The position numbers and the translations under genes were made by a program. From Escherichia phage Shashou: a stretch of DNA of 44,155 nt. The notes under the pieces are model-generated. The model saw nothing but the letters and a program-made list of their open reading frames with translations, made no database searches and was not told the origin of the DNA. Below, piece after piece: positions 13-39,911 of the stretch. How positions within the stretch are numbered: position 1 is the first letter of the stretch; every line of letters begins with the position of its first letter. The stretch lies in the sequence record MK931440.1; one strand, given 5' to 3'.

Positions 13-597
13 ATGCGCTCTGATGGTCAGACGCATATGTCAGGGGGTTATATGAAACTTACACTTAAGCAACCATCACCTGAGGTGGTGCAAGCTGCAC
101 ATGAAGAGGCTGTTAGTGCCAACCGTCGCCGTAAACGACCACGTGGCAAACAGAGCCTTTACCAGTCATCCCGTAATTCCGCTGCATTGTGGGACCCGGA
201 CTATTGCGACGAGTTAATCCGGTTCTTCGACCGCAACTCGTGGGAACTCGTACCTACGTCCAAAGGTGACGAACGCCCGTTGATTCAGGATAAACCCCCG
301 TCACTGGCCCGCTTCGCCTTACATATCGGCGTCACTATCCCTATTATTAAGCTGTGGTTGCGTGAAATTACCGCATTTGCCGAAGCCTATGAAACCGCTC
401 AGGCGCTGGAAGAGGCGTATTTCACCGAGACAGGCGCGGCCGGTATCTCCGCTACGTTTGCTGCCGCTAAGCTGGGCCTAAGCAAAGAGAAACCGGTTGA
501 ATCTACTGAAAAAACCGCGCCGACTGAGATTGTGTTCACTGTGGCAGAGCCCGTAGGTAAAATCGTTACCACGAACATGGGTGAGGTAGAGGAATGA
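13..597 (+). CDS. terminase small subunit (putative)
   Basis: 194-aa ORF overlapping the large terminase start (ATGA); basic N-terminal stretch RRRKRPRGK; alternative in-frame ATG starts at 37 and 52. Confidence 0.6.
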   Translation: MRSDGQTHMSGGYMKLTLKQPSPEVVQAAHEEAVSANRRRKRPRGKQSLYQSSRNSAALWDPDYCDELIRFFDRNSWELVPTSKGDERPLIQDKPPSLARFALHIGVTIPIIKLWLREITAFAEAYETAQALEEAYFTETGAAGISATFAAAKLGLSKEKPVESTEKTAPTEIVFTVAEPVGKIVTTNMGEVEE

Positions 598-1844
598 GTA
601 TTCAGCTATCAGCCCCTCAGGCGCTGTTCCTGAACTGCGATAACAAATACAAGGCCTATGTCGGTGGCTTCGGCAGCGGCAAGACGTTTGTCGGCTGCCT
701 CGACCTGCTTACGTTCATGCTTAAGCACCCAGGTACGCGCCTTGGTTACTTCGGCCCGACCTACCCGGCTATCCGCGACATCTTCTACCCGACATTCGAG
801 GAAGCTGCTAACCTCCTGGGCCTTGATGTGCTGGTTAAATCCGGCGACAAAGAGGTCGTCGTTACGCGCGGTAAGACTGTAATTGGTACAGTAATCTGCC
901 GCTCGATGGATAACCCCGGCTCGATAGTCGGCTTCAAAATCGCTGCTGCGGTAGTCGATGAATTAGACGTACTGAGCCGTGAGAAAGCGGAGCTAGCGTG
1001 GAACAAAATCGTGGCCCGTATGCGTCTGGTTATCCCTGGCGTAATTAACCACATCTCCGTCACTACGACGCCGGAGGGGTTCAAGTTCGTCTACGCCAAG
1101 TTCAAAGAGAACCCGACACCTAGCTACTCTATGGTGCAGGCGTCAACTCATGAGAACGCCAGGTTCCTGCCGCCGGATTACATCAGCTCGCTGACCGAGA
1201 CCTACCCGGCGCAGTTGATTAACGCCTACCTTAATGGTGAGTTCGTTAACCTTACTTCTGGCAGTGTCTACTACGCCTACGACCGACGAAAGCAACGCAG
1301 TAAAGAGACAATCAAACCTGGTGACACCCTGTACATCGGGCAGGACTTCAACGTTACGAAAAACGCCAGCGCCGTGTATGTGCAACGCCCTAACGGGTGG
1401 CACGCGGTAGCAGAACTGAAAGGGCTGTTCGACACTCCTGACACCGTGCGCGTTATTACCGAGAAGTGGAAGTCGCAAGGCCACCGCATCGTCGTGTATC
1501 CGGATGCCAGCGGAAAGAACCGCAAGACCAACTCGGCGTCAATCTCTGACATAGCCTTACTCCAGCAGGCCGGGTTCGATGTGCGGGCTAAATCTGCCAA
1601 TCCGCCGGTTAAGGACCGTGTTTTAGCCGTGAATACCGCGCTGGAAAAAGGTAAGCTGTGGGTTAATGACCACTTATGCCCTGAGATAGCGAAGACTCTG
1701 GAGCAACAGGCGTACGACGACAACGGTGAGCCAGCTAAAGACGGCGTCATAGACCATATGGCGGATGCGCTTGGTTATCCTGTAGTTTACGAGATGCCGG
1801 TGGTTAAACCAGTAATCAACATCCCGGTGACTTTCGCACTTTAA
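594..1844 (+). CDS. terminase large subunit
   Basis: Walker A GGFGSGKTF, Walker B-like VVDELD, C-terminal acidic nuclease-like region; first gene pair of packaging module. Confidence 0.9.
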   Translation: MSIQLSAPQALFLNCDNKYKAYVGGFGSGKTFVGCLDLLTFMLKHPGTRLGYFGPTYPAIRDIFYPTFEEAANLLGLDVLVKSGDKEVVVTRGKTVIGTVICRSMDNPGSIVGFKIAAAVVDELDVLSREKAELAWNKIVARMRLVIPGVINHISVTTTPEGFKFVYAKFKENPTPSYSMVQASTHENARFLPPDYISSLTETYPAQLINAYLNGEFVNLTSGSVYYAYDRRKQRSKETIKPGDTLYIGQDFNVTKNASAVYVQRPNGWHAVAELKGLFDTPDTVRVITEKWKSQGHRIVVYPDASGKNRKTNSASISDIALLQQAGFDVRAKSANPPVKDRVLAVNTALEKGKLWVNDHLCPEIAKTLEQQAYDDNGEPAKDGVIDHMADALGYPVVYEMPVVKPVINIPVTFAL

Positions 1845-5022: not shown

Positions 5023-5483
5023 TGATGGGCTTTTTCAAAGTAACTGATGTACCTTCGCGCCGTGTTGTCCAGTACGCCCGCGTGTCAGGCTCCGGCGAGA
5101 ACGTGACCTACGTTGAAGATGAAAGTGTACTGGGTACACCTGTAGACGAGATGCCGTATGCAGATAAAACTGGTATCGCCATCACGGCGGCAGGTATGCT
5201 TTACGAGATTCCGTATCTGGAAGACGCAGGTGACGTGTACTTCTCCGTGCAACCGAAAGACGCGGAACTGGTAGACGGAAGCGCGGTAATCACGGTAGAA
5301 GTTAAGGCGTATAAAGCACCATATTCGCTGACCTGGTACAAAGACGGGAAGGAAGTCGTTAACGCACCAGAAGAAGCTTTGTCTCTGACGGTTAACGCTG
5401 CAGGCGAATACTTCGTTAAAGTTACTGATGCCGATGGTGTAGAGGCTGTGAGTAAAGCGGCGAAGGTTACTAAGCCGGAATAA
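5022..5483 (+). CDS. Ig-like domain protein (putative virion surface/decoration)
   Basis: C-terminal SLTWYKDGKEV...GEYFVKVTDADG resembles Ig-like fold signature; paralogous to 8219..8560. Confidence 0.55.
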   Translation: MMGFFKVTDVPSRRVVQYARVSGSGENVTYVEDESVLGTPVDEMPYADKTGIAITAAGMLYEIPYLEDAGDVYFSVQPKDAELVDGSAVITVEVKAYKAPYSLTWYKDGKEVVNAPEEALSLTVNAAGEYFVKVTDADGVEAVSKAAKVTKPE

Positions 5484-5486
5484 ACT

Positions 5487-5510
5487 AAAGCCCCGAAAGG
5501 GGCTTTTTAG
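5487..5510 (+). terminator. intrinsic terminator
   Basis: aagcccc-gaaa-ggggctt followed by TTTT. Confidence 0.65.
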
Positions 5511-5571
5511 CGCCTGTGATTATTCCAGTTATTCCACTCAATTGTAAATGTTGGAATAAACTATTCGAATA

Positions 5572-5600
5572 GTTGACTTTTCACTAAAAATGTGCTAAGC
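5572..5600 (+). promoter_or_regulatory. sigma70-like promoter TTGACT-N17-(TGc)TAAGCT upstream of spanin/scaffold/capsid genes
   Basis: -35 and extended -10 with 17-nt spacer; near-identical copy at 37502..37530. Confidence 0.5.
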
Positions 5601-5800
5601 TCCACCTGAGCTTGTGAAGTATGAACAAGCGACCGCGGCGCGGGCAGGTAACGGAGCGGGACGTAAGTCCTGAGTGTAGTTACGCTGACGCGTTCGGAAG
5701 GGCCATACTCTATTGCTTGTGTAAAAAGTAACTGGTTTACTGAGATTACGCCGTTTCTATGTTTAAATGATAAGGACTAGCGCCCAGCTTTAAGGCTGGG
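5601..5800 (+). ncRNA. candidate noncoding leader/small RNA (copy 1)
   Basis: No ORF; conserved 41-nt 5' element with hairpin gcttgt-N9-acaagc shared with 37531..37571; ends near hairpin cccagc-tttaag-gctggg about 5771..5793. Confidence 0.3.
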
Positions 5801-14215: not shown

Positions 14216-14256
14216 GGTGTAGCTCCTGTTCGAGTTAACATTGTTGGTGTAAGTGA

Positions 14257-14285
14257 ATAGTATCCTATTATGTTGGGGTGCGCAA
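14257..14285 (-). promoter_or_regulatory. promoter TTGCGC-N17-TACTAT (minus strand) with palindrome AATAG-tatc-CTATT
   Basis: Palindrome at 14256..14269; region is reverse-complement homologous to 37799..37835; drives Imm-like/phosphoesterase operon. Confidence 0.5.
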
Positions 14286-14393
14286 GTAATGTGATAGAAT
14301 AATTTTGCGCCTAGTGTCGCACACGAAAAGCGGGTGGTTCCCGTCTGGCGCATTTACCATTAACCTGTAACCTCTTAACCAAAGGATTAAAGA

Positions 14394-24750: not shown

Positions 24751-24888
24751 CTACTCTTCGGATAACTTCTCCAGTACAAACGCCAGTTGCGCATTAGCGG
24801 CGTCTCTCTGTTGCCGTAGTCGTAGAACCTCTTCTTCGAGTTCCTCGATACGTTTTTGCAATGCCGGAATTGGGGCTATGATGTTCAT
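24751..24888 (-). CDS. small coiled-coil protein (45 aa), hypothetical
   Basis: ATGA overlap with helicase stop; heptad-like IEELEEEVLRLRQQ; ends at terminator; not in ORF track. Confidence 0.4.
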   Translation of the reverse strand: MNIIAPIPALQKRIEELEEEVLRLRQQRDAANAQLAFVLEKLSEE

Positions 24889-27350
24889 TTCTTACCTCGT
24901 CTCTTCATGTAATTAAGCAATTCTTCCTGTACAGATTTCTTCTCGTCGGTGCGCGCGGCAACAACCTCATCCAGCGTGTCTTTAGCGACGATGTGATAGA
25001 GGAACACCGGGCGCTCGTGTCCAGCCTGTTTCTGACGAACAGGGCCTATGCGCTCGACAACCTGCAAATAGTGCTCGAGGTTCCATCCCTGACTTATAAA
25101 CGCCAGATGATGCCCTCCATCCTGTAAATTCAAACCATGGCCGGCTGACGCGGGATGAACACATAAGATTTCGATTTCACCACGGTTCCACGCTTCCATC
25201 TGCTTATTACCCTTAGCTCCTTTGGCAAACGCCTTAGCCTGCGGGAATCGCTTAAGTATGCGCTCCAGTTCGTGTTTAAACTGATAGGCCACCAGTAACG
25301 GCGCGCCCTGCAACTCCTCAACAATGGACTCCAGTGCGTCCAGTTTCGTGTCATGCACTTTCTCCCAGTCTTTCGTTGCTTCGCCATCTGGCCCTGATAC
25401 ATACACGGCACCGGACGCAATCTGGAGACACTTTGATGTCTTCGCTGCCGCGTTAGCGGCTTCAACTTCCCCGCTCTCGAGTTCCGCAAATAACTTCTCC
25501 TCCATATCGATGTACGCCTGACGCGCTTTCTTCGGCAGGTCTATTTCAACAGGAACGATAATCGGCGCTTCGCAACCGAACCACTCTGCAGCATCGATAG
25601 TGAGACTGATATCCTTCATCTTCTGATGAATCTCGGTATCCGCGCCCGGGCGAGCGTGATACTCACGCGCCATAGCCGATTTGCCTTTCTGTATCGAATT
25701 AAACCAGCGGTCGGTAAACGCCGTATACGAAGAACCAAGTCGCTCGCCTGCGTCTATAAACCAGTTCTGCCCCCACAAGTCTTTGAGGCCGTTTGGTGAC
25801 GGCGTACCGGTCAGGTTGATAAAACGCTTAACCTTACCAAACGCCACTTTACTAAGCGCCTTTGCTCGCTTGCTGCCACCAGAACGGCTGCGGAACGATT
25901 TAAGCTTCGTGCTCTCGTCGGCAACGATAACTGTGAAAGGCCAGTCGTCTTTGCCGTAGTAGTCAATCAGCCACTCGATAACTTCGTAGTTAGTGCACAC
26001 CACGTTAGCGTCGGACTCAAGCGCCGTGATGCGGCGCTTCTCCGAACCGGTCGCATCTACTACACGCAGGCACGGGAAACCCCAACGTGCCTGTTCCGCG
26101 GGCCACGTGCCAGACGCAACACGCAACGGGGCGAGGATTAACACGCGGTCGTCGTCATTAAGTTGCCCATTACGGAACAGGCGGTTGAGAACCCACAACG
26201 TTGAGCTTGTATTGTGCGTGACAGTGAAGTCCCCCAATAAAAACCTACTGTCACCGTCGATAGTGAAGCCGAAATAATCATCTACGCCGACCGGGGTTAT
26301 GGATTCTATACCAACGTTAAGCACGTTCTTATTAATATTACGCTTCGGTAAATTCTGGTGGCGTCCTCGCACGAAAGGTACCTCAGAAAAATCGCCAGAT
26401 ACCGACACACGGAAGTAGTCACCCCAAACATCAGTGTTTGCGCAACGCTTACGAGTTTTCTTCTTGTAAGCAGCAAAACCAAGAGAACGGCATAGATAGC
26501 AAAAATCATCAGCAAGTCGCTCGCTTACCGAAATCCAGTCAAAACCCGCTTTAGACAAATCGCAGTAACCATCACTATCCAGAAGCCCCGCCAGCAATTC
26601 TAACCGCTGTCGCCGGTCGCCGCATTTGTAACTATGCGGTATATGCTTATTGTTCAGGACACCCGCCGATTTCAGCGCGTGCGTAAACCCGTGCTTCTTA
26701 TGACCTGTGTTGCCGTAAGATATACTCCATGTAAGTCCTTCTTTTCGTATTTGCATCCCATTACGTGCTGCGTACGACTCAAGATAAGCCCTTATTTCCT
26801 TTTCGTTCTCTCCTGATGTTATGGCCCCCGACGACGAAGTACCGTCACCCAGCCATAACCCCATAAGGTACGGAGGCAATAAAGCCTCGTCCTGCTCTTT
26901 CCTTGTAAAATCGACAGGTACCCGCCAACCCTTAAGATACCCATTAGGTCCGGTTACATATTTCGGCAACTTAAGCCAGTCGCGGACGCTTATGTCGAAA
27001 ACGGTATTATCTGGCCATGAACCTTTTGCAATCCCTGTAGTAGTTCGCAGGGATAATATATGGCTTTCGTTGACCGTATACGACTCTCCTTTTCGCGGTT
27101 TAACCTCGTACATCATCTCCCGGCCTCTACCGAGAGACAGTACATTTCTAGGCGTTGAATCCGGCCCCATAAGCACGTCACCGACGATGACGTCTTCTAC
27201 TTTCTTGGTCGTACCGTCAAACATAATAACTTCCGTCCCGCGTTTCAGGCACTTGCCGCTGCCCATACTAGCCCAGATATTGCAACGTGGGTGCTGTAAC
27301 ATAAACGACGTCATTATTTTCTGGTATTCCCTGCGCCTAAATTTACTCAT
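24885..27350 (-). CDS. SF2 (SNF2-like) helicase interrupted by an intein
   Basis: Walker A split as MGSGK | intein | TSSTLW; DExx box VIVADEST; C-terminal helicase motifs incl QVVERIGPVRQ. Confidence 0.8.
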   Translation of the reverse strand: MSKFRRREYQKIMTSFMLQHPRCNIWASMGSGKCLKRGTEVIMFDGTTKKVEDVIVGDVLMGPDSTPRNVLSLGRGREMMYEVKPRKGESYTVNESHILSLRTTTGIAKGSWPDNTVFDISVRDWLKLPKYVTGPNGYLKGWRVPVDFTRKEQDEALLPPYLMGLWLGDGTSSSGAITSGENEKEIRAYLESYAARNGMQIRKEGLTWSISYGNTGHKKHGFTHALKSAGVLNNKHIPHSYKCGDRRQRLELLAGLLDSDGYCDLSKAGFDWISVSERLADDFCYLCRSLGFAAYKKKTRKRCANTDVWGDYFRVSVSGDFSEVPFVRGRHQNLPKRNINKNVLNVGIESITPVGVDDYFGFTIDGDSRFLLGDFTVTHNTSSTLWVLNRLFRNGQLNDDDRVLILAPLRVASGTWPAEQARWGFPCLRVVDATGSEKRRITALESDANVVCTNYEVIEWLIDYYGKDDWPFTVIVADESTKLKSFRSRSGGSKRAKALSKVAFGKVKRFINLTGTPSPNGLKDLWGQNWFIDAGERLGSSYTAFTDRWFNSIQKGKSAMAREYHARPGADTEIHQKMKDISLTIDAAEWFGCEAPIIVPVEIDLPKKARQAYIDMEEKLFAELESGEVEAANAAAKTSKCLQIASGAVYVSGPDGEATKDWEKVHDTKLDALESIVEELQGAPLLVAYQFKHELERILKRFPQAKAFAKGAKGNKQMEAWNRGEIEILCVHPASAGHGLNLQDGGHHLAFISQGWNLEHYLQVVERIGPVRQKQAGHERPVFLYHIVAKDTLDEVVAARTDEKKSVQEELLNYMKRRGKK
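26211..27251 (-). mobile_element. intein with LAGLIDADG homing endonuclease domain (about 347 aa)
   Basis: Begins with Cys after GSGK, ends THN followed by Thr; LAGLIDADG-type motifs LMGLWLGDG and LAGLLDSDG; excision restores GSGKT. Confidence 0.75.
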
Positions 27351-27568: not shown

Positions 27569-27856
27569 CTAACTATAATAGTTCGCTATTAGGTCGTCAA
27601 CCTGTTTAAACGAACCAACGACAAAAACATTTGCACCACGTTTACGCATCCGCTCGTGCTCTCGTAGCTGGTGGGGGTCCGGCTTCGTGTTTTCATCTTT
27701 CTTAACCTCGACGAACCAGATGACGCTGCCGGGGAGGATTACCAGCAGGTCAGGGGCGCCCACTCTATTTTCGTACGACAATTTGCGTACGAGGCCCCCC
27801 AGGGCCTCGAATCGGTCTTTTGCGTATTTCTGAACAACTCCTTCTTTAGTCGCCAT
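27569..27856 (-). CDS. VRR-NUC domain nuclease
   Basis: PD-(D/E)xK signature GAPDLLV ... FVEVKK in a 95-aa protein. Confidence 0.65.
   Translation of the reverse strand: MATKEGVVQKYAKDRFEALGGLVRKLSYENRVGAPDLLVILPGSVIWFVEVKKDENTKPDPHQLREHERMRKRGANVFVVGSFKQVDDLIANYYS
27572..27600 (-). promoter_or_regulatory. promoter TTGACG-N17-TATAGT (minus strand) with palindrome AATAG-ttcg-CTATT
   Basis: Palindrome at 27577..27590 in spacer; upstream of helicase operon. Confidence 0.55.
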
Positions 27857-28346
27857 GGTTACAGAAATCTCCGTGTAGTGATTCTCTCGCCGCGCAGACT
27901 ACTTTGTACGCTTCCTCCTTTGTCGAAAAAGCACCGAAATATATGCGCTTCCCGTTCACGGTTATCCTTGCCCTAAATTTACCTCTTTCAGGTGATACCC
28001 CCTTTAAACATGAGGTGTTGTCACGCCTTACCCTTGCGTTTCTGGTATTCTCCCACCTGGTCGCTAACCGCAGGTTGCAAATCCGATTATCCGCACGGTC
28101 GCCGTTTATATGGTCAACCTCCTCCGGCGGCATATCACCGTACACCCACCACCAAGCCAATCGGTGTGCCGGATAGTGGACGTTTCTGAACACAACTTTC
28201 ATATACCCAAGGTCAGTGTAGTTATTTATAGCTTTCCCCGGAACAGACCGCGGACCACTTCGCTTAACCCATTTGAATACCCCAGTATCAGGGTCGTACG
28301 ACAGGAAATCTTTTATATCGTCACTTGGTGCTTTCATAATACGCAC
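27846..28346 (-). CDS. HNH homing endonuclease (free-standing)
   Basis: HNH core HYPAHRLAWWWVYG ... VDHINGDRADNRICNLRLATRWEN; C-terminal AP2-like DNA-binding region. Confidence 0.7.
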   Translation of the reverse strand: MRIMKAPSDDIKDFLSYDPDTGVFKWVKRSGPRSVPGKAINNYTDLGYMKVVFRNVHYPAHRLAWWWVYGDMPPEEVDHINGDRADNRICNLRLATRWENTRNARVRRDNTSCLKGVSPERGKFRARITVNGKRIYFGAFSTKEEAYKVVCAARESLHGDFCNHGD

Positions 28347-28419
28347 CCCTCACGTTTCGTATGCTCAATCCCGCAGCGCGGGCAGATTCGGCAGTCTTCT
28401 TCGTATAACCAGTAAATTT

Positions 28420-28551
28420 TCATTCCAGCACCCACATATAAATTGCGATGAACATGCCTAATACGGCAACCATCATGCCGTATTGGCCCTCGTGGCAGTA
28501 GACACCGGCGGCGAATCCTGCCAGTACCGCGATAATTAGTTTACTTAGCAT
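28420..28551 (-). CDS. small membrane protein (43 aa), hypothetical
   Basis: Overlaps DNA polymerase stop; two hydrophobic segments; not in ORF track. Confidence 0.35.
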   Translation of the reverse strand: MLSKLIIAVLAGFAAGVYCHEGQYGMMVAVLGMFIAIYMWVLE

Positions 28552-30712
28552 AACGCTTCATCTCCGCACCTTCCGCTACAAGAGGGAAGCCTTCTGCCCA
28601 CTCAGGCAGAGAACACATTAATTTTTCCAGTTCGCCCACCGTGTACTCAGATGTATCGGGGGTTTCGCAGATAATCTCATCGTGAACATGAAGTACAATT
28701 GGATAGCCGTTTGCTTCTACGTTCAGCAGGGCGTTAGCCAGCAAATCACGGCACAGCGCCTGAGTGCAGTTTTCCACGAGTTTACCGGAGTAGGTGTACT
28801 GGAAGCCCCACTGACGGGTTAACTGATTCTCTCCCTGGTACTTGATATGCACGTTAGTAGACACCTTCCCGTCTTCGTCTGTCTCTTTCGACACGCTCAA
28901 CCCGATGCCTGGATAGGACATAACGCGGCCAGACGGCAACGTCATGCGCAACCACCAACCGGCGACTTTGTTGCCGTTGTTGTCTGTATCTACGTTACGC
29001 GAAAACTTAACGCCCCGCGGCCCTGCGGTGAACTCTTTGCCTGGATTGCGGATAGCAGCCATAGCTGCGTCTTCAATATCTCGCCAGAATTGTACTATCG
29101 CTGGATTGGCCTCTCGGTACATGCGTTTCAGAGCGTCACATGTTCTCCATACTTTCTTATCAAGTATATATGATGGTCGGTCATCCTTTTCACCAGGACG
29201 TGGTGGTCGCTTGGCTTCCTGAATACGTGCCCACTCGTAACCGCGTGCAGTAGCAGCCCAAATATGGTCCGGGAAAGTTCCGTCTAAAGTGCGTGTCATA
29301 TCATTCAAATCAAGACCTAAGTTTTTAGCAAACGTGACGAAAGCACCGACACCACCCGCGTAGCCGAGGCCCAGAACCATTGCTTTGGCTATTTGTCTTT
29401 GGTCCTTTGTTACGTCGTCATAACTAACGTTGAACACGGTTGATGCGAGTTTCTTATACACATCAACCCCGTTTACAAATACTTCTATTAAATCGTCTTC
29501 ACCAGCAAGCCACGCAAGCCCGCGGCCCTCGACGTTAGAGTAATCAGCGACGACAAACTTGTGCCCTTCTTCTGGTATGATGCAGCTACGAACCGTCGAT
29601 GCCGTTAGCTTGGCTACGTCAAAACGGCGATGAGCACGGCCTTTAAGTAGCGCTGAAATACCTTTATCCAGTTCCTCATCATGGTAATACCCGCGAGCCA
29701 GGTTCTGTGGCTGGAAGCCTTTACCAGCAAATCGTAACGTACGCTTGGCCCCACCATACTGGATGCAACCCCGGCGGCGGTCGTCAGACGAGCGACCTAA
29801 CAGCAATGGGTTGTATTTCGTGGACGCCGTGGACGCGGCCCCGAGGCGCATTTCAATAATCGTACGCGCATCGTCCTGTAAATCATCATCCGCCAGCAGG
29901 TCATTCAGCGTCGACTTCTGTGCGTTGTGGATGCGGTGGGCGGGGGCGAGTTCACGCAGAATCGGCAGGAAGTCTTTACCGGTGAGTGAGCAGCCGTATT
30001 TGCGCTGGGCTTCTTCCTGCAACTGCGCCTTGTGCTTCTCTACGGCTTCAATCGCTGCTTCCGCCAGCGCAACATCAACCTTGAACCCACGGTCATTGAT
30101 TAACTGGTCCAGTTCCAGTACACGGTCTTCGAACTCAGAGTTACCCCACCGCGGCAGCTTATGGAATACTTCACGCATCGCGGTGATGTCGCTCACGGCG
30201 TACTTGATGAACAGCGCCCACTCGTCCGAGTGCGTTTCGGCGGTGTAGCGGCGGATTTTGTAGTTCTTCGGTGTCGGTTTAGAAAAACGCTTAATCAGCG
30301 CCTTGCCGCGTTTGTCTTTCGCGTTGTCTGCAGACACGCCCAGCACTTCACACAGCGCGTCAAGTGAACCCGGCAGCGCGTGACGAAATGCCCAAATCAT
30401 CGTATCAATGGTGTTGCTTACAGGAATATCAAAGCCCCAGCAGTGCTTCATGATGAGCCTATCGAACATTGAGCCGTTGTGCCACACCATCTTAATGCGG
30501 CTGTTTGGCTTAGCCAGACGGCGTAACGCGCGGTGCAAATCTCCCGGCATGTCGCTGCCGTCGGTGCAATCCCATGCCTGTACAGGCTCGTCGTCAAAAG
30601 CATAGGTACAGATGAGCACTTCGGTGGTTGGGTGTTCGGCGTAAGCGTAGGAGCCAACTTTCTTTAAATCGGCCTCGGAGAATGTTTCAAAGTCTAAGAA
30701 CAGGTAACTCAT
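28541..30712 (-). CDS. DNA polymerase, family A, with 3'-5' exonuclease domain
   Basis: Exo motif LFLDFETFS; motif A DYSNVEGR; motif B RQIAKAMVLGLGY; motif C VLHVHDEIICE. Confidence 0.85.
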   Translation of the reverse strand: MSYLFLDFETFSEADLKKVGSYAYAEHPTTEVLICTYAFDDEPVQAWDCTDGSDMPGDLHRALRRLAKPNSRIKMVWHNGSMFDRLIMKHCWGFDIPVSNTIDTMIWAFRHALPGSLDALCEVLGVSADNAKDKRGKALIKRFSKPTPKNYKIRRYTAETHSDEWALFIKYAVSDITAMREVFHKLPRWGNSEFEDRVLELDQLINDRGFKVDVALAEAAIEAVEKHKAQLQEEAQRKYGCSLTGKDFLPILRELAPAHRIHNAQKSTLNDLLADDDLQDDARTIIEMRLGAASTASTKYNPLLLGRSSDDRRRGCIQYGGAKRTLRFAGKGFQPQNLARGYYHDEELDKGISALLKGRAHRRFDVAKLTASTVRSCIIPEEGHKFVVADYSNVEGRGLAWLAGEDDLIEVFVNGVDVYKKLASTVFNVSYDDVTKDQRQIAKAMVLGLGYAGGVGAFVTFAKNLGLDLNDMTRTLDGTFPDHIWAATARGYEWARIQEAKRPPRPGEKDDRPSYILDKKVWRTCDALKRMYREANPAIVQFWRDIEDAAMAAIRNPGKEFTAGPRGVKFSRNVDTDNNGNKVAGWWLRMTLPSGRVMSYPGIGLSVSKETDEDGKVSTNVHIKYQGENQLTRQWGFQYTYSGKLVENCTQALCRDLLANALLNVEANGYPIVLHVHDEIICETPDTSEYTVGELEKLMCSLPEWAEGFPLVAEGAEMKRYAK

Positions 30713-37501: not shown

Positions 37502-37530
37502 TTGACTTTTACTAAGAAATATGGTAAGCT
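37502..37530 (+). promoter_or_regulatory. sigma70-like promoter TTGACT-N17-(TGg)TAAGCT
   Basis: Paralog of promoter at 5572; followed by the same conserved leader. Confidence 0.5.
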
Positions 37531-37790
37531 CAGCCTGAGCTTGTGAAGTATGAACAAGCGACCGCGGCGCGCGGCAGGCGAAACGAGCACGTGTAGCGTG
37601 TGGAGTGAGGCTCGCTAGCGCGTTTGGGAGGCCCCAAGTCTATTGTAATTCCAGCCTAAGTAGCTAAGTTACTGATTTGCCGTAGGTTAGAACCGCCAGC
37701 TCACTCACTCACTCTTGGTGCCTTCGGCACCACGTTCGTTTCGTTTCGCTCGCTACCCCCTTAAACGAAAGAATCACAACGGCAACGTAA
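37531..37790 (+). ncRNA. candidate noncoding leader/small RNA (copy 2)
   Basis: No ORF of 60 aa or more; same 5' element; contains UUCG-loop hairpin ggtgcc-ttcg-gcacc and short tandem repeats. Confidence 0.3.
37699..37754 (+). repeat. short tandem repeats (ctcactcactcactc; cgtttcgtttcg) flanking a tetraloop hairpin
   Basis: Direct repeats visible in the noncoding region between divergent operons. Confidence 0.5.
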
Positions 37791-37798
37791 CTAATCTC

Positions 37799-37827
37799 TT
37801 GCACACCCCAACATAATAGGATACTAT
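37799..37827 (+). promoter_or_regulatory. promoter TTGCAC-N17-TACTAT with palindrome AATAG-gata-CTATT
   Basis: Palindrome (37815..37828) overlaps spacer and -10; drives 37862 gene block. Confidence 0.5.
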
Positions 37828-37861
37828 TCACTTATCGAAACGAGACAGAGGAGTGAGGGCT

Positions 37862-38791: not shown

Positions 38792-38941
38792 ATGGTTACT
38801 TTGATGATTATGGAGTTCGAAAACAGCGCTGCAACTTACCGCGAGATGACTATGGCGCAGGCGTACCACCTGGCTAAACACAGCAACTTCTACAAGGCTC
38901 AAATCATTAATGAGTTTGGGGTAATTGACTATGAATTTTAA
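38792..38941 (+). CDS. small hypothetical protein (49 aa)
   Basis: RBS gagaggagagg downstream of promoter 38732..38760; not in ORF track. Confidence 0.4.
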   Translation: MVTLMIMEFENSAATYREMTMAQAYHLAKHSNFYKAQIINEFGVIDYEF

Positions 38942-39203
38942 CAGCTACACCGTGACCGTTGATTTTGAGGGGCTGGAGTTGCCCCTCCCTAACAACTACC
39001 GGTACATAACGCGCGATAGTAATGGGTTTATTCAGGGGTGGAAGAACAAACCGACGGATACTGAGTTCGGGATGTCAGGAGGAGAAGAGTTGCCGGTCAC
39101 TTTCGGGCATCAGAGTAGCAATGGAGAACTTAAAACGGTGATTCGTAAGTATCGTCGCCGCGATAACACCGGGCTTATCGCAATAACAGGCGCTGTTGAA
39201 TAA
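38931..39203 (+). CDS. hypothetical protein
   Basis: ATG at Met3 of track ORF. Confidence 0.45.
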   Translation: MNFNSYTVTVDFEGLELPLPNNYRYITRDSNGFIQGWKNKPTDTEFGMSGGEELPVTFGHQSSNGELKTVIRKYRRRDNTGLIAITGAVE

Positions 39204-39222
39204 GCGAGAGGAGAGACAGAAG

Positions 39223-39711
39223 ATGAGTAACAAAAACGAAGTATTCGAGTACCTGATTGACCAACTACGGCAGCAGGTAAATAGCAACCCGTACAAGCAA
39301 CAGTGCGAAGACCTGGCGCACGAGGTGTTGTCACTCAAGAATCAGTTACGTGATGCGTCAGAACATATTAAGGAGTTGCATAAGGCGTTGGCTGCAGCTA
39401 CGGGTGACGTAGGCGCTTATATAGCAGCAGAGCAATCTGGTTGCCGTAAGGAAGATACTCAGTACAACGCCTGGAGGCCGCATTATGGTGCACGACAACC
39501 TGTGCCGGATGGGACTATGGTATTTATCCGGTATCGCAACGGGGAGGAGCTGAAACACAGTGTAGCAGCAGAAAAGAGGTTGTGGATTTGGGATGGAACA
39601 TACGCAGACATAGTGGAATACAAGATTGACACACAGGAATGCGAGCACAATTGGTTATATAGTAAACACAAAAGTGGCTTCGTTTGCTTTAATTGTGGGG
39701 CGCGTAAGTAA
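39223..39711 (+). CDS. hypothetical protein with C-terminal Cys/His cluster
   Basis: Start at Met10 of track ORF with RBS gagaggag; C-terminal CEHNW...CFNC. Confidence 0.5.
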   Translation: MSNKNEVFEYLIDQLRQQVNSNPYKQQCEDLAHEVLSLKNQLRDASEHIKELHKALAAATGDVGAYIAAEQSGCRKEDTQYNAWRPHYGARQPVPDGTMVFIRYRNGEELKHSVAAEKRLWIWDGTYADIVEYKIDTQECEHNWLYSKHKSGFVCFNCGARK

Positions 39712-39911
39712 TGACCAGCGTCCTATTTATATGGGTACTGTACGCAGGCCAGTTACAACTAGCGGCAACAGAAACGTTTTACTCACTGGATGCGTGCCAG
39801 GCTGCGGCACGCAACGCAGAGAACGCGCACTTCCTGTTTCAGGATAAGCCGATTGATACTGAGGTGCGCGCGACATGTTCAACGAAACGATTAGCTAAGC
39901 AGGAGAAATAA
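39711..39911 (+). CDS. hypothetical protein with hydrophobic N-terminus
   Basis: Stop-start overlap; N-terminal VLFIWVLYAGQLQLAA. Confidence 0.45.
   Translation: MTSVLFIWVLYAGQLQLAATETFYSLDACQAAARNAENAHFLFQDKPIDTEVRATCSTKRLAKQEK

Follow-up and report, generated by a model that had tools for sequence, protein, structure and literature searches.

The DNA analyzed here, referred to below as the window, is the whole stretch of 44,155 nucleotides. The locus of interest lies in its replication module, where a small gene for an HNH endonuclease is followed directly at its 3′ end, with an overlap of 11 nt, by the gene for a VRR-NUC nuclease. The relevant genes are as follows.

24885..27350: SNF2-type helicase gene, which contains an intein
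26208..27251, minus strand: Hint plus LAGLIDADG intein in the helicase gene, a selfish endonuclease present in the replication module besides the HNH
27569..27856, minus strand: VRR-NUC nuclease or putative Holliday-junction resolvase gene, a core gene and the fixed downstream neighbor of the slot occupied by the HNH gene
27846..28337, minus strand: HNH-AP2 (HNN-AP2) endonuclease gene, 163 aa plus stop, equivalent to CPT_Sciku_037
28334..28423, minus strand: 29-aa Cys-rich open reading frame (ORF) CPT_Sciku_038, the upstream neighbor of the slot in phage Sciku
28420..28551: tiny ORF between the HNH and polymerase genes
28541..30712: family A DNA polymerase gene, upstream of the HNH gene

An earlier, sequence-only reading had placed the HNH gene between the VRR-NUC and DNA polymerase genes, and this gene order is borne out, with two tiny ORFs lying before the polymerase. 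The same reading described the gene as free-standing and as a second selfish endonuclease beside a helicase intein. It does indeed lie in neither an intron nor an intein, and a Hint plus LAGLIDADG intein is present in the helicase gene.

In the ORF list of the window the HNH frame extends from 27846 to 28346 on the minus strand. The ORF itself exists as first described, but the GTG at 28346 that had been taken as its start has to be replaced by the ATG at 28337, which is almost certainly the true start codon. This ATG is preceded by a GAGGGG Shine-Dalgarno sequence, is the start in every aligned homolog as well as the start annotated in GenBank, and overlaps the stop codon of the upstream 29-aa ORF as ATGA. 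Together, the Shine-Dalgarno sequence, the ATGA overlap and the homolog-wide start imply an HNH protein of 163 aa. At the other end of the gene, the GGAG ribosome-binding site of VRR-NUC (27869..27872) is positioned inside the HNH 3′ end. A scan for promoters and terminators around the HNH gene detected no signal above shuffled expectation, implying that the gene, with neither signal of its own, is read within the replication operon. The HNH cassette is translationally coupled into this operon just upstream of VRR-NUC.

The upstream 29-aa ORF (28334-28423, minus strand) encodes MKIYWLYEEDCRICPRCGIEHTKREGCVL, in which a CxxCxxC...C pattern resembles a mini zinc ribbon. It is conserved at 79-100% amino acid identity among the relatives compared, has no family match, and in phages with an empty slot has three additional codons and overlaps the start of VRR-NUC. 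An NCBIfam search with the HNH protein and its small neighbors gave no match, and a tblastn search of the HNH protein against the window found no paralog. PADLOC matched its generic 'homing endonuclease' model alone, and thus provides no hint of a defense system.

Between positions 26800 and 29800 the window is 100% identical to Escherichia phage Sciku (MK931439.1; Kagunavirus, Guernseyvirinae), and the whole window is 99.9% identical to the Sciku record (43,130 bp) with the addition of 1,020 extra nucleotides at 38849-39868. GenBank lists CPT_Sciku_037 as 'HNH endonuclease' (27846..28337, minus strand), and the note on Sciku gp37 points to the Felix O1 HNH as similar and names the InterPro entries IPR016177 and IPR003615. 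The Sciku genome announcement mentions the helicase intein and not the HNH gene (PMC6753286). The HNH endonuclease gene is therefore an ordinary and already annotated selfish gene, and its recognition is correct and not new. The 1,020 extra nucleotides contain small ORFs without assigned function (92, 171 and 66 aa) and are 94% identical to phages Snoke and Schulenburg. Their presence could mean that the genome is a variant, that the assemblies differ, or that the deposited Sciku record has a deletion. We rejected a second homing endonuclease gene in this segment given its content of small ORFs and its 94% identity to Snoke. Comparison of the window with itself revealed a 78-nt direct repeat (91% identical; 5573-5648 and 37502-37578) and a 37-nt inverted repeat (97%; 14250-14286 and 37798-37834), distant intergenic repeats that may be shared regulatory elements.

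The HNH protein can be divided into three parts, listed here with the codons of its catalytic motif.

Residues 1-55: N-terminal beta-hairpins
Residues ~56-100: beta-beta-alpha-metal HNH core (D75, H76, N88, N97)
Residues ~107-160: AP2/ERF-type domain
28083..28115, minus strand: codons of the catalytic motif D75-H76-I-N-G-D-R-A-D-N84-R

The fusion of an HNH nuclease to an AP2-like DNA-binding region, as read from the bare sequence, is upheld by the Pfam HNH_3 match, by a homolog profile and by fold superposition. Pfam HNH_3 (PF13392) is matched with an E-value of 5.3e-15 (55.2 bits against a cut-off of 24.8; aa 58-102 in 166-aa numbering) and PHROG 99 'HNH endonuclease' with an E-value of 1.2e-63, so that for this predicted nuclease the family match is far beyond chance. 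We aligned 66 homologs, 38-62% identical, and turned the alignment into a profile for searching the PDB. Residues H76, N84, N88 and R90 are invariant across the 66 homologs, and D75, N97 and N100 are at least 90% conserved. The profile matches I-HmuI (1U3E) with an E-value of 5.7e-8 over residues 31-104, and aligns D74, H75, N87 and N96 of I-HmuI with D75, H76, N88 and N97 of the HNH protein. On the basis of this alignment, the I-HmuI active-site residues are all present in the HNH protein. H75 of I-HmuI is said to act as the general base and D74 and N96 as metal ligands, in work attributed to Shen et al. 2004. The motif boxes of the HNH protein (HRLAW / P / DH / DNR / NLR / EN, with no CxxC dyads) are those of the phage 'HNN-AP2' endonucleases (PMC2248197), and group 2 of the His-Me finger classification joins I-HmuI-type cores with AP2 modules (PMC5714182). 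The protein is a predicted I-HmuI-like member of the HNN-AP2 group.

For the C-terminal domain, the single-sequence Pfam AP2 (PF00847) score of 20.8 bits (E 5e-4) lies under the cut-off of 33.3, and a single-sequence search of the PDB gave a marginal AP2 match only (E 0.72). Many of the homologs carry a precomputed PF00847 match, and the homolog profile matches plant AP2/ERF domains in the PDB over residues ~107-160 (WRI1, 7e-11; TEM1, 4e-7; ERF1, 3e-4). The AlphaFold2 model of the HNH protein is confident over its full length (pLDDT 96.4). Its HNH core is composed of strands 73-76 and 89-92 followed by helix 94-99, and its AP2 region of strands 114-117, 120-127 and 130-137 and helix 140-154. 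Foldseek superposes the C-terminus of the model on the AP2 domains of AtERF1 and TEM1 at 1.1-1.9 Å with a probability of 1.0, the fit of the AP2 part to 1GCC being 1.1 Å over 48 columns (probability 1.00). With the single-sequence Pfam score sub-threshold, the AP2 assignment of the C-terminal domain is supported by the homolog profile and the predicted fold. When the whole chain was compared with the PDB, 1U3E was absent among the best 50 Foldseek matches and the sole His-Me match was a weak one to I-PpoI.

The HNH gene occupies a slot which exists in several states among related phages. We aligned the slot classes on a set of exemplars (Snoke, SGPC, Golestan, VSe101, celemicas, Jersey, SETP3, EM1 and ZCEC5), and inferred other slot classes from span lengths in a 60-row sample of ~450 relatives. 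The alignment defines the following features.

27845..28339, minus strand: HNH insert-specific cassette of 495 nt, from alignment with empty-site relatives
28340..28351, minus strand: left junction with GAGGGG, within the terminal (3′) part of the upstream 29-aa ORF; conserved whether the site is occupied or empty
27840..27856, minus strand: right junction, with the HNH stop TAA (27846..27848) within the first VRR-NUC codons (ATG at 27856..27854)
27893..28248, minus strand: segment of 356 nt deleted in Jersey

In Golestan, VSe101 and celemicas the site is empty and consists of CGTGAGGGGTGYGTR, GATGAGTACGCCT and GARGG in direct succession, and the upstream small gene overlaps a VRR-NUC gene beginning MSTPEG. 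The cassette replaces 13 nt of this site (GATGAGTACGCCT) and brings with it, besides the HNH ORF, a new start and four new initial codons for VRR-NUC, which then begins MATKEG instead of MSTPEG. It separates two blocks, ACGAAACGTGAGGGGTG and CAGAAATACGCAAAAGA, that are invariant in all aligned genomes. DNA similarity to HNH is found in the slot in 58 of the 450 phage records that have the slot flanks, an occupancy of ~13%, and these comprise 3 Sciku-type and 55 SETP3-type records; two further records contain the remnant seen in Jersey. The proposal that the gene is an insertion relative to endonuclease-free relatives is therefore substantiated, both by the clean empty site in Golestan, VSe101 and celemicas and by the presence of HNH in only ~58 of 450 records. 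Far from being universally present at this position with no evidence of mobility, the gene is patchily distributed, has two alleles and one remnant left by a deletion, and is younger than the flanking DNA.

The second allele is found in SETP3, EM1 and the Kenya-K phages, in which the slot contains a different HNH-AP2 gene. The slot of Snoke holds an unrelated 39-aa hydrophobic ORF, probably a membrane peptide (L002, 2098-2217), and that of SGPC a 64-aa Cys-containing ORF (L011, 882-1076) which EM1 (L003, 2494-2688) has besides its HNH gene. Judging by span lengths in the 60-row sample, the slot is probably most often either empty or filled by a Snoke-type occupant. The slot is a general accessory-gene hotspot and not just a landing site for homing endonucleases.

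Two copies of the gene are degenerate. In Jersey the slot contains a 40-aa ORF which is the Sciku-type HNH gene with an internal, frameshifting deletion of 356 nt. This makes Jersey gp40 a remnant of 31 HNH codons and 9 out-of-frame codons, with the entire catalytic and AP2 part lost. In the ZCEC5 copy codon 153 is a premature TAG, and the residues beyond it are altered. Decay of the HNH gene is visible in both the Jersey and ZCEC5 copies.

The helicase intein and the slot HNH gene occur independently, with both being present in Sciku and SETP3. VSe101 has a helicase gene of 2,481 nt, as long as the intein-containing ones, yet no HNH gene in the slot, and ZCEC5, EM1 and the metagenomic carriers combine an HNH gene with an intein-less helicase of 474 aa. 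Elsewhere in their genomes, relatives have additional HNH-AP2 paralogs that share 34-42% identity with the Sciku protein (1007-1504 and 5053-5526 in EM1, L003; 34592-35023 and 42876-43352 in ZCEC5, L007; 5245-5742 in L012). Their sites include the interval between the helicase gene and gene 35 and a position upstream of the polymerase gene, and the number of HNH-AP2 genes is three each in ZCEC5 and EM1 and one in Sciku.

We compared the divergence of the HNH gene with that of its flanks. The Sciku-type protein (96-98% amino acid identity) is present in ZCEC5 and at least five metagenomic contigs, always in the slot upstream of VRR-NUC, in backbones that are not alike: methylase genes differ or are missing, helicases have no intein, and tail spikes vary. 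Among seven Sciku-type carriers the HNH gene has 96.9-98.1% nucleotide identity relative to Sciku, compared with 90-92% for VRR-NUC, 90-93% for gene 35, 88-94% for the two small ORFs and 72-81% for the 3′ half of the polymerase gene. The HNH gene and its immediate flanks differ significantly in each comparison (Fisher p 2e-3 to 3.5e-6), the six carrier comparisons not being independent of each other as L017 is the same as L018 and L015 and L019 are nearly identical. The tract of low divergence begins and ends at the boundaries of the HNH ORF, and the Sciku flanks are equally close to HNH-less genomes (91/93/97% for Snoke) and to carriers. The discordance is also evident at the protein level: Sciku and ZCEC5 are 76% identical in Pol and 96% in HNH, whereas Sciku and EM1 are 93.5% identical in Pol and 51.5% in HNH. 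The SETP3-type allele repeats this discordance across genera and hosts, with EM1 (Escherichia marmotae) and SETP3 (Salmonella) being 94.5% identical in HNH, 84% in VRR-NUC and 71% at the Pol 3′ end. As judged from these divergences, the HNH gene has been shared among its carriers more recently than the DNA flanking it on both sides. Stronger constraint, instead of recent transfer, could in principle also account for its excess identity. Two much more distant phages, L012 and L013, have HNH in the same slot with amino acid identities to Sciku (62% and 56%) comparable to those of Pol (65% and 61%). The association of HNH with the slot is therefore old, the similar divergence of the two proteins being as compatible with prolonged vertical inheritance as with mobility, and it is probable that the slot HNH has been both lost and regained.

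A sharp mosaic boundary lies inside the polymerase gene, whose 5′ half is 89-91% identical between the carriers and Sciku and whose 3′ half (28552-29626) is the 72-81% identical part. In the alignment of the Sciku and ZCEC5 polymerase genes local windows fall to 44-67%, with indels around 28950-29070 and 29370-29510. The Snoke polymerase is 96% identical at the protein level over its full length.

The two alleles of the slot are 52% identical overall, but their divergence is unevenly distributed. Identity is high at the ends (92% for aa 1-25 and 85% for aa 151-163) and intermediate in the HNH core (69%), and falls to 20% for aa 26-55 and 29% for the AP2 region, these being the presumed DNA-contact regions. 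The strong divergence of both presumed DNA-contact regions suggests a different or shifted target specificity. Such a distribution would be expected had the parts that recognize DNA been swapped or drifted apart, with the ends remaining coupled to the translation signals of the neighboring genes.

The HNH-AP2 gene of the window is intact, optional, embedded in an operon and younger than its surroundings. We consider it likely that it is a free-standing homing endonuclease gene of the I-HmuI-like HNH_3 ('HNN') group, encoding an enzyme with an AP2-type DNA-binding domain. From its family membership and comparative genomics, the product is inferred to be a monomeric, site-specific nicking or cutting enzyme, with the resulting break being repaired from the carrier genome and the cassette thereby copied. 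During co-infection the monomeric enzyme would bind a long asymmetric site in genomes that do not have the Sciku-type allele, using its N-terminal beta-hairpins and AP2 domain. A single beta-beta-alpha-metal site would then nick or cut the DNA, with H76 as the putative general base and D75 and N97 holding the metal. Phage recombination and repair would mend the break from the HNH-bearing template, copying the cassette into the slot. The target may lie at or near the empty junction between ACGAAACGTGAGGGGTG and CAGAAATACGCAAAAGA, such that insertion destroys the target and confers self-immunity; this location is suggested by the ends of the divergence tract, which coincide with the ORF boundaries, and by the splitting of a conserved junction by the cassette. 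From the shape of the divergence profile, our guess would be that the target spans the empty junction, and we predict a cut within about 40 bp of the junction formed by GAGGGGTGCGTA, GATGAGTACGCCT and GAAGG in direct succession. After fixation the gene would decay, as exemplified by the nonsense codon of ZCEC5 and the 356-nt deletion of Jersey. This scheme has precedents. HNN-AP2 genes of phages are mobile elements that decay once they have spread (PMC2248197). In Skunavirus, the I-HmuI-like HNH endonucleases group according to their insertion site and are responsible for marker exclusion (PMC12724721), and for Jerseyvirus genomes homing endonucleases and inteins have already been listed among the mobile elements (PMC8425127). 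Nuclease genes are also found at the boundaries of inter-phage genetic exchange (PMC10448857).

The two alleles permit a more elaborate scenario, in which the slot is a contested landing pad. Sciku-type and SETP3-type enzymes, alike in their termini and catalytic core but with both recognition modules swapped, would each cut empty sites and genomes carrying the rival allele, and would in this way drive both allele replacement and the sharp mosaic boundary in the 3′ half of the polymerase gene across Kagunavirus and Jerseyvirus. The intron endonucleases I-HmuI and I-HmuII cut each other's phages. We regard this scenario as speculative and rather unlikely.

The nuclease might alternatively have been domesticated because it benefits the phage, either by excluding or degrading co-infecting relatives or by making nicks that start recombination-dependent replication together with the VRR-NUC resolvase, with spreading not being its main role. 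The invariable position of the gene directly upstream of VRR-NUC, to which it is translationally coupled, would suit such a function, as would the documented marker exclusion by the I-HmuI-like enzymes of Skunavirus (PMC12724721). Also relevant are the distant relatives L012 and L013, whose slot HNH has diverged to a similar extent as Pol, which suggests long residence. Against retention for a beneficial function stand the lack of the gene in ~87% of related phages and the decayed copies in ZCEC5 and Jersey, and we judge this explanation to be improbable. Since competitive exclusion and homing are two faces of one activity, this explanation is more a nuance of the homing endonuclease interpretation than an alternative to it.

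A still less probable explanation, to which we give little credence, is that the gene is an inactive relic which no longer cuts and travels as a passenger when the replication module undergoes ordinary mosaic recombination. Degeneration after fixation is common in homing endonuclease genes (PMC2248197), the ZCEC5 copy already has its nonsense codon, and the region is strongly mosaic, with the Pol 3′ half at 72-81% identity and the flanks at about 90%. However, in the window the ORF is full-length, the catalytic and structural residues are all intact, and the AlphaFold model is confidently folded from end to end. The same protein is moreover encoded in at least five other, different backbones, and general mosaicism is not expected to make HNH the least diverged segment, bounded by the ends of its ORF. 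Finally, whilst HNH proteins frequently accompany the packaging machinery of phages as accessory components (a point mentioned in PMC5714182), the idea that this one assists the terminase, in the manner of HK97 gp74, is effectively refuted by its location about 27 kb from the terminase genes (13..1844), by its membership of the HNH_3 / I-HmuI group 2 rather than the PF01844 group, by its sequence-specific AP2 module, and by its patchy presence, most relatives packaging normally without it.

Read as a homing endonuclease gene, the slot HNH follows a textbook-style life cycle of a free-standing element, from invasion through spread across genera and hosts to decay, and it helps to explain the local mosaicism of the replication module in the Guernseyvirinae, a group widely isolated for therapy and biocontrol. 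With their divergent recognition modules, the two natural alleles lend themselves to studies of target choice by HNH-AP2 enzymes. Beyond this the importance of the gene is modest, and it opens no new question.

The closest solved or characterized relative of the Sciku HNH protein is I-HmuI of Bacillus phage SPO1 (PDB 1U3E), a relationship seen at the profile level only. I-HmuI, together with I-HmuII, I-BasI and I-TwoI, has the HNH_3 / 'HNN' core and N-terminal beta-sheet region in common with the Sciku protein, and both I-HmuI and, as predicted, the Sciku protein are monomeric modular enzymes of phage replication modules. I-HmuI nicks one strand. It differs from the Sciku enzyme in being encoded in a group I intron of the DNA polymerase gene, rather than free-standing between genes, and in having helical/HTH modules as its C-terminal DNA-binding part where the Sciku protein has an AP2 domain. 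That domain, the C-terminal ~55 residues, has the three-stranded sheet and helix of the plant AP2/ERF domains (AtERF1, 1GCC; TEM1, 7ET4; WRI1, 7WQ5), with an RMSD of 1.1-1.9 Å and 28-35% identity. In the plant proteins it is a transcription factor domain, whereas in Sciku it is the targeting module of a predicted nuclease.

Among phage proteins, the free-standing HNN-AP2 endonucleases of the Xanthomonas phages Xp10/OP1/Xop411, T5 (heg), Felix O1 and RB49 (Magnani et al. 2004, cited in PMC2248197) have the same two-domain architecture and motif boxes as the Sciku HNH protein and no CxxC zinc dyads. Their genes are scattered patchily over phage genomes, some copies being truncated or degenerate (PMC2248197). 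The SETP3-type HNH proteins (SETP3 gp37, EM1 gp62 and those of the Kenya-K phages) are like the Sciku protein in slot and architecture and have a length of 165 aa. The HNN-AP2 genes of Xanthomonas (X. oryzae) phages are found at varying positions with no conserved flanks. In contrast, the Sciku lineage uses strictly one slot, and this fidelity to the site upstream of VRR-NUC holds even where Pol is only about 61-65% identical.
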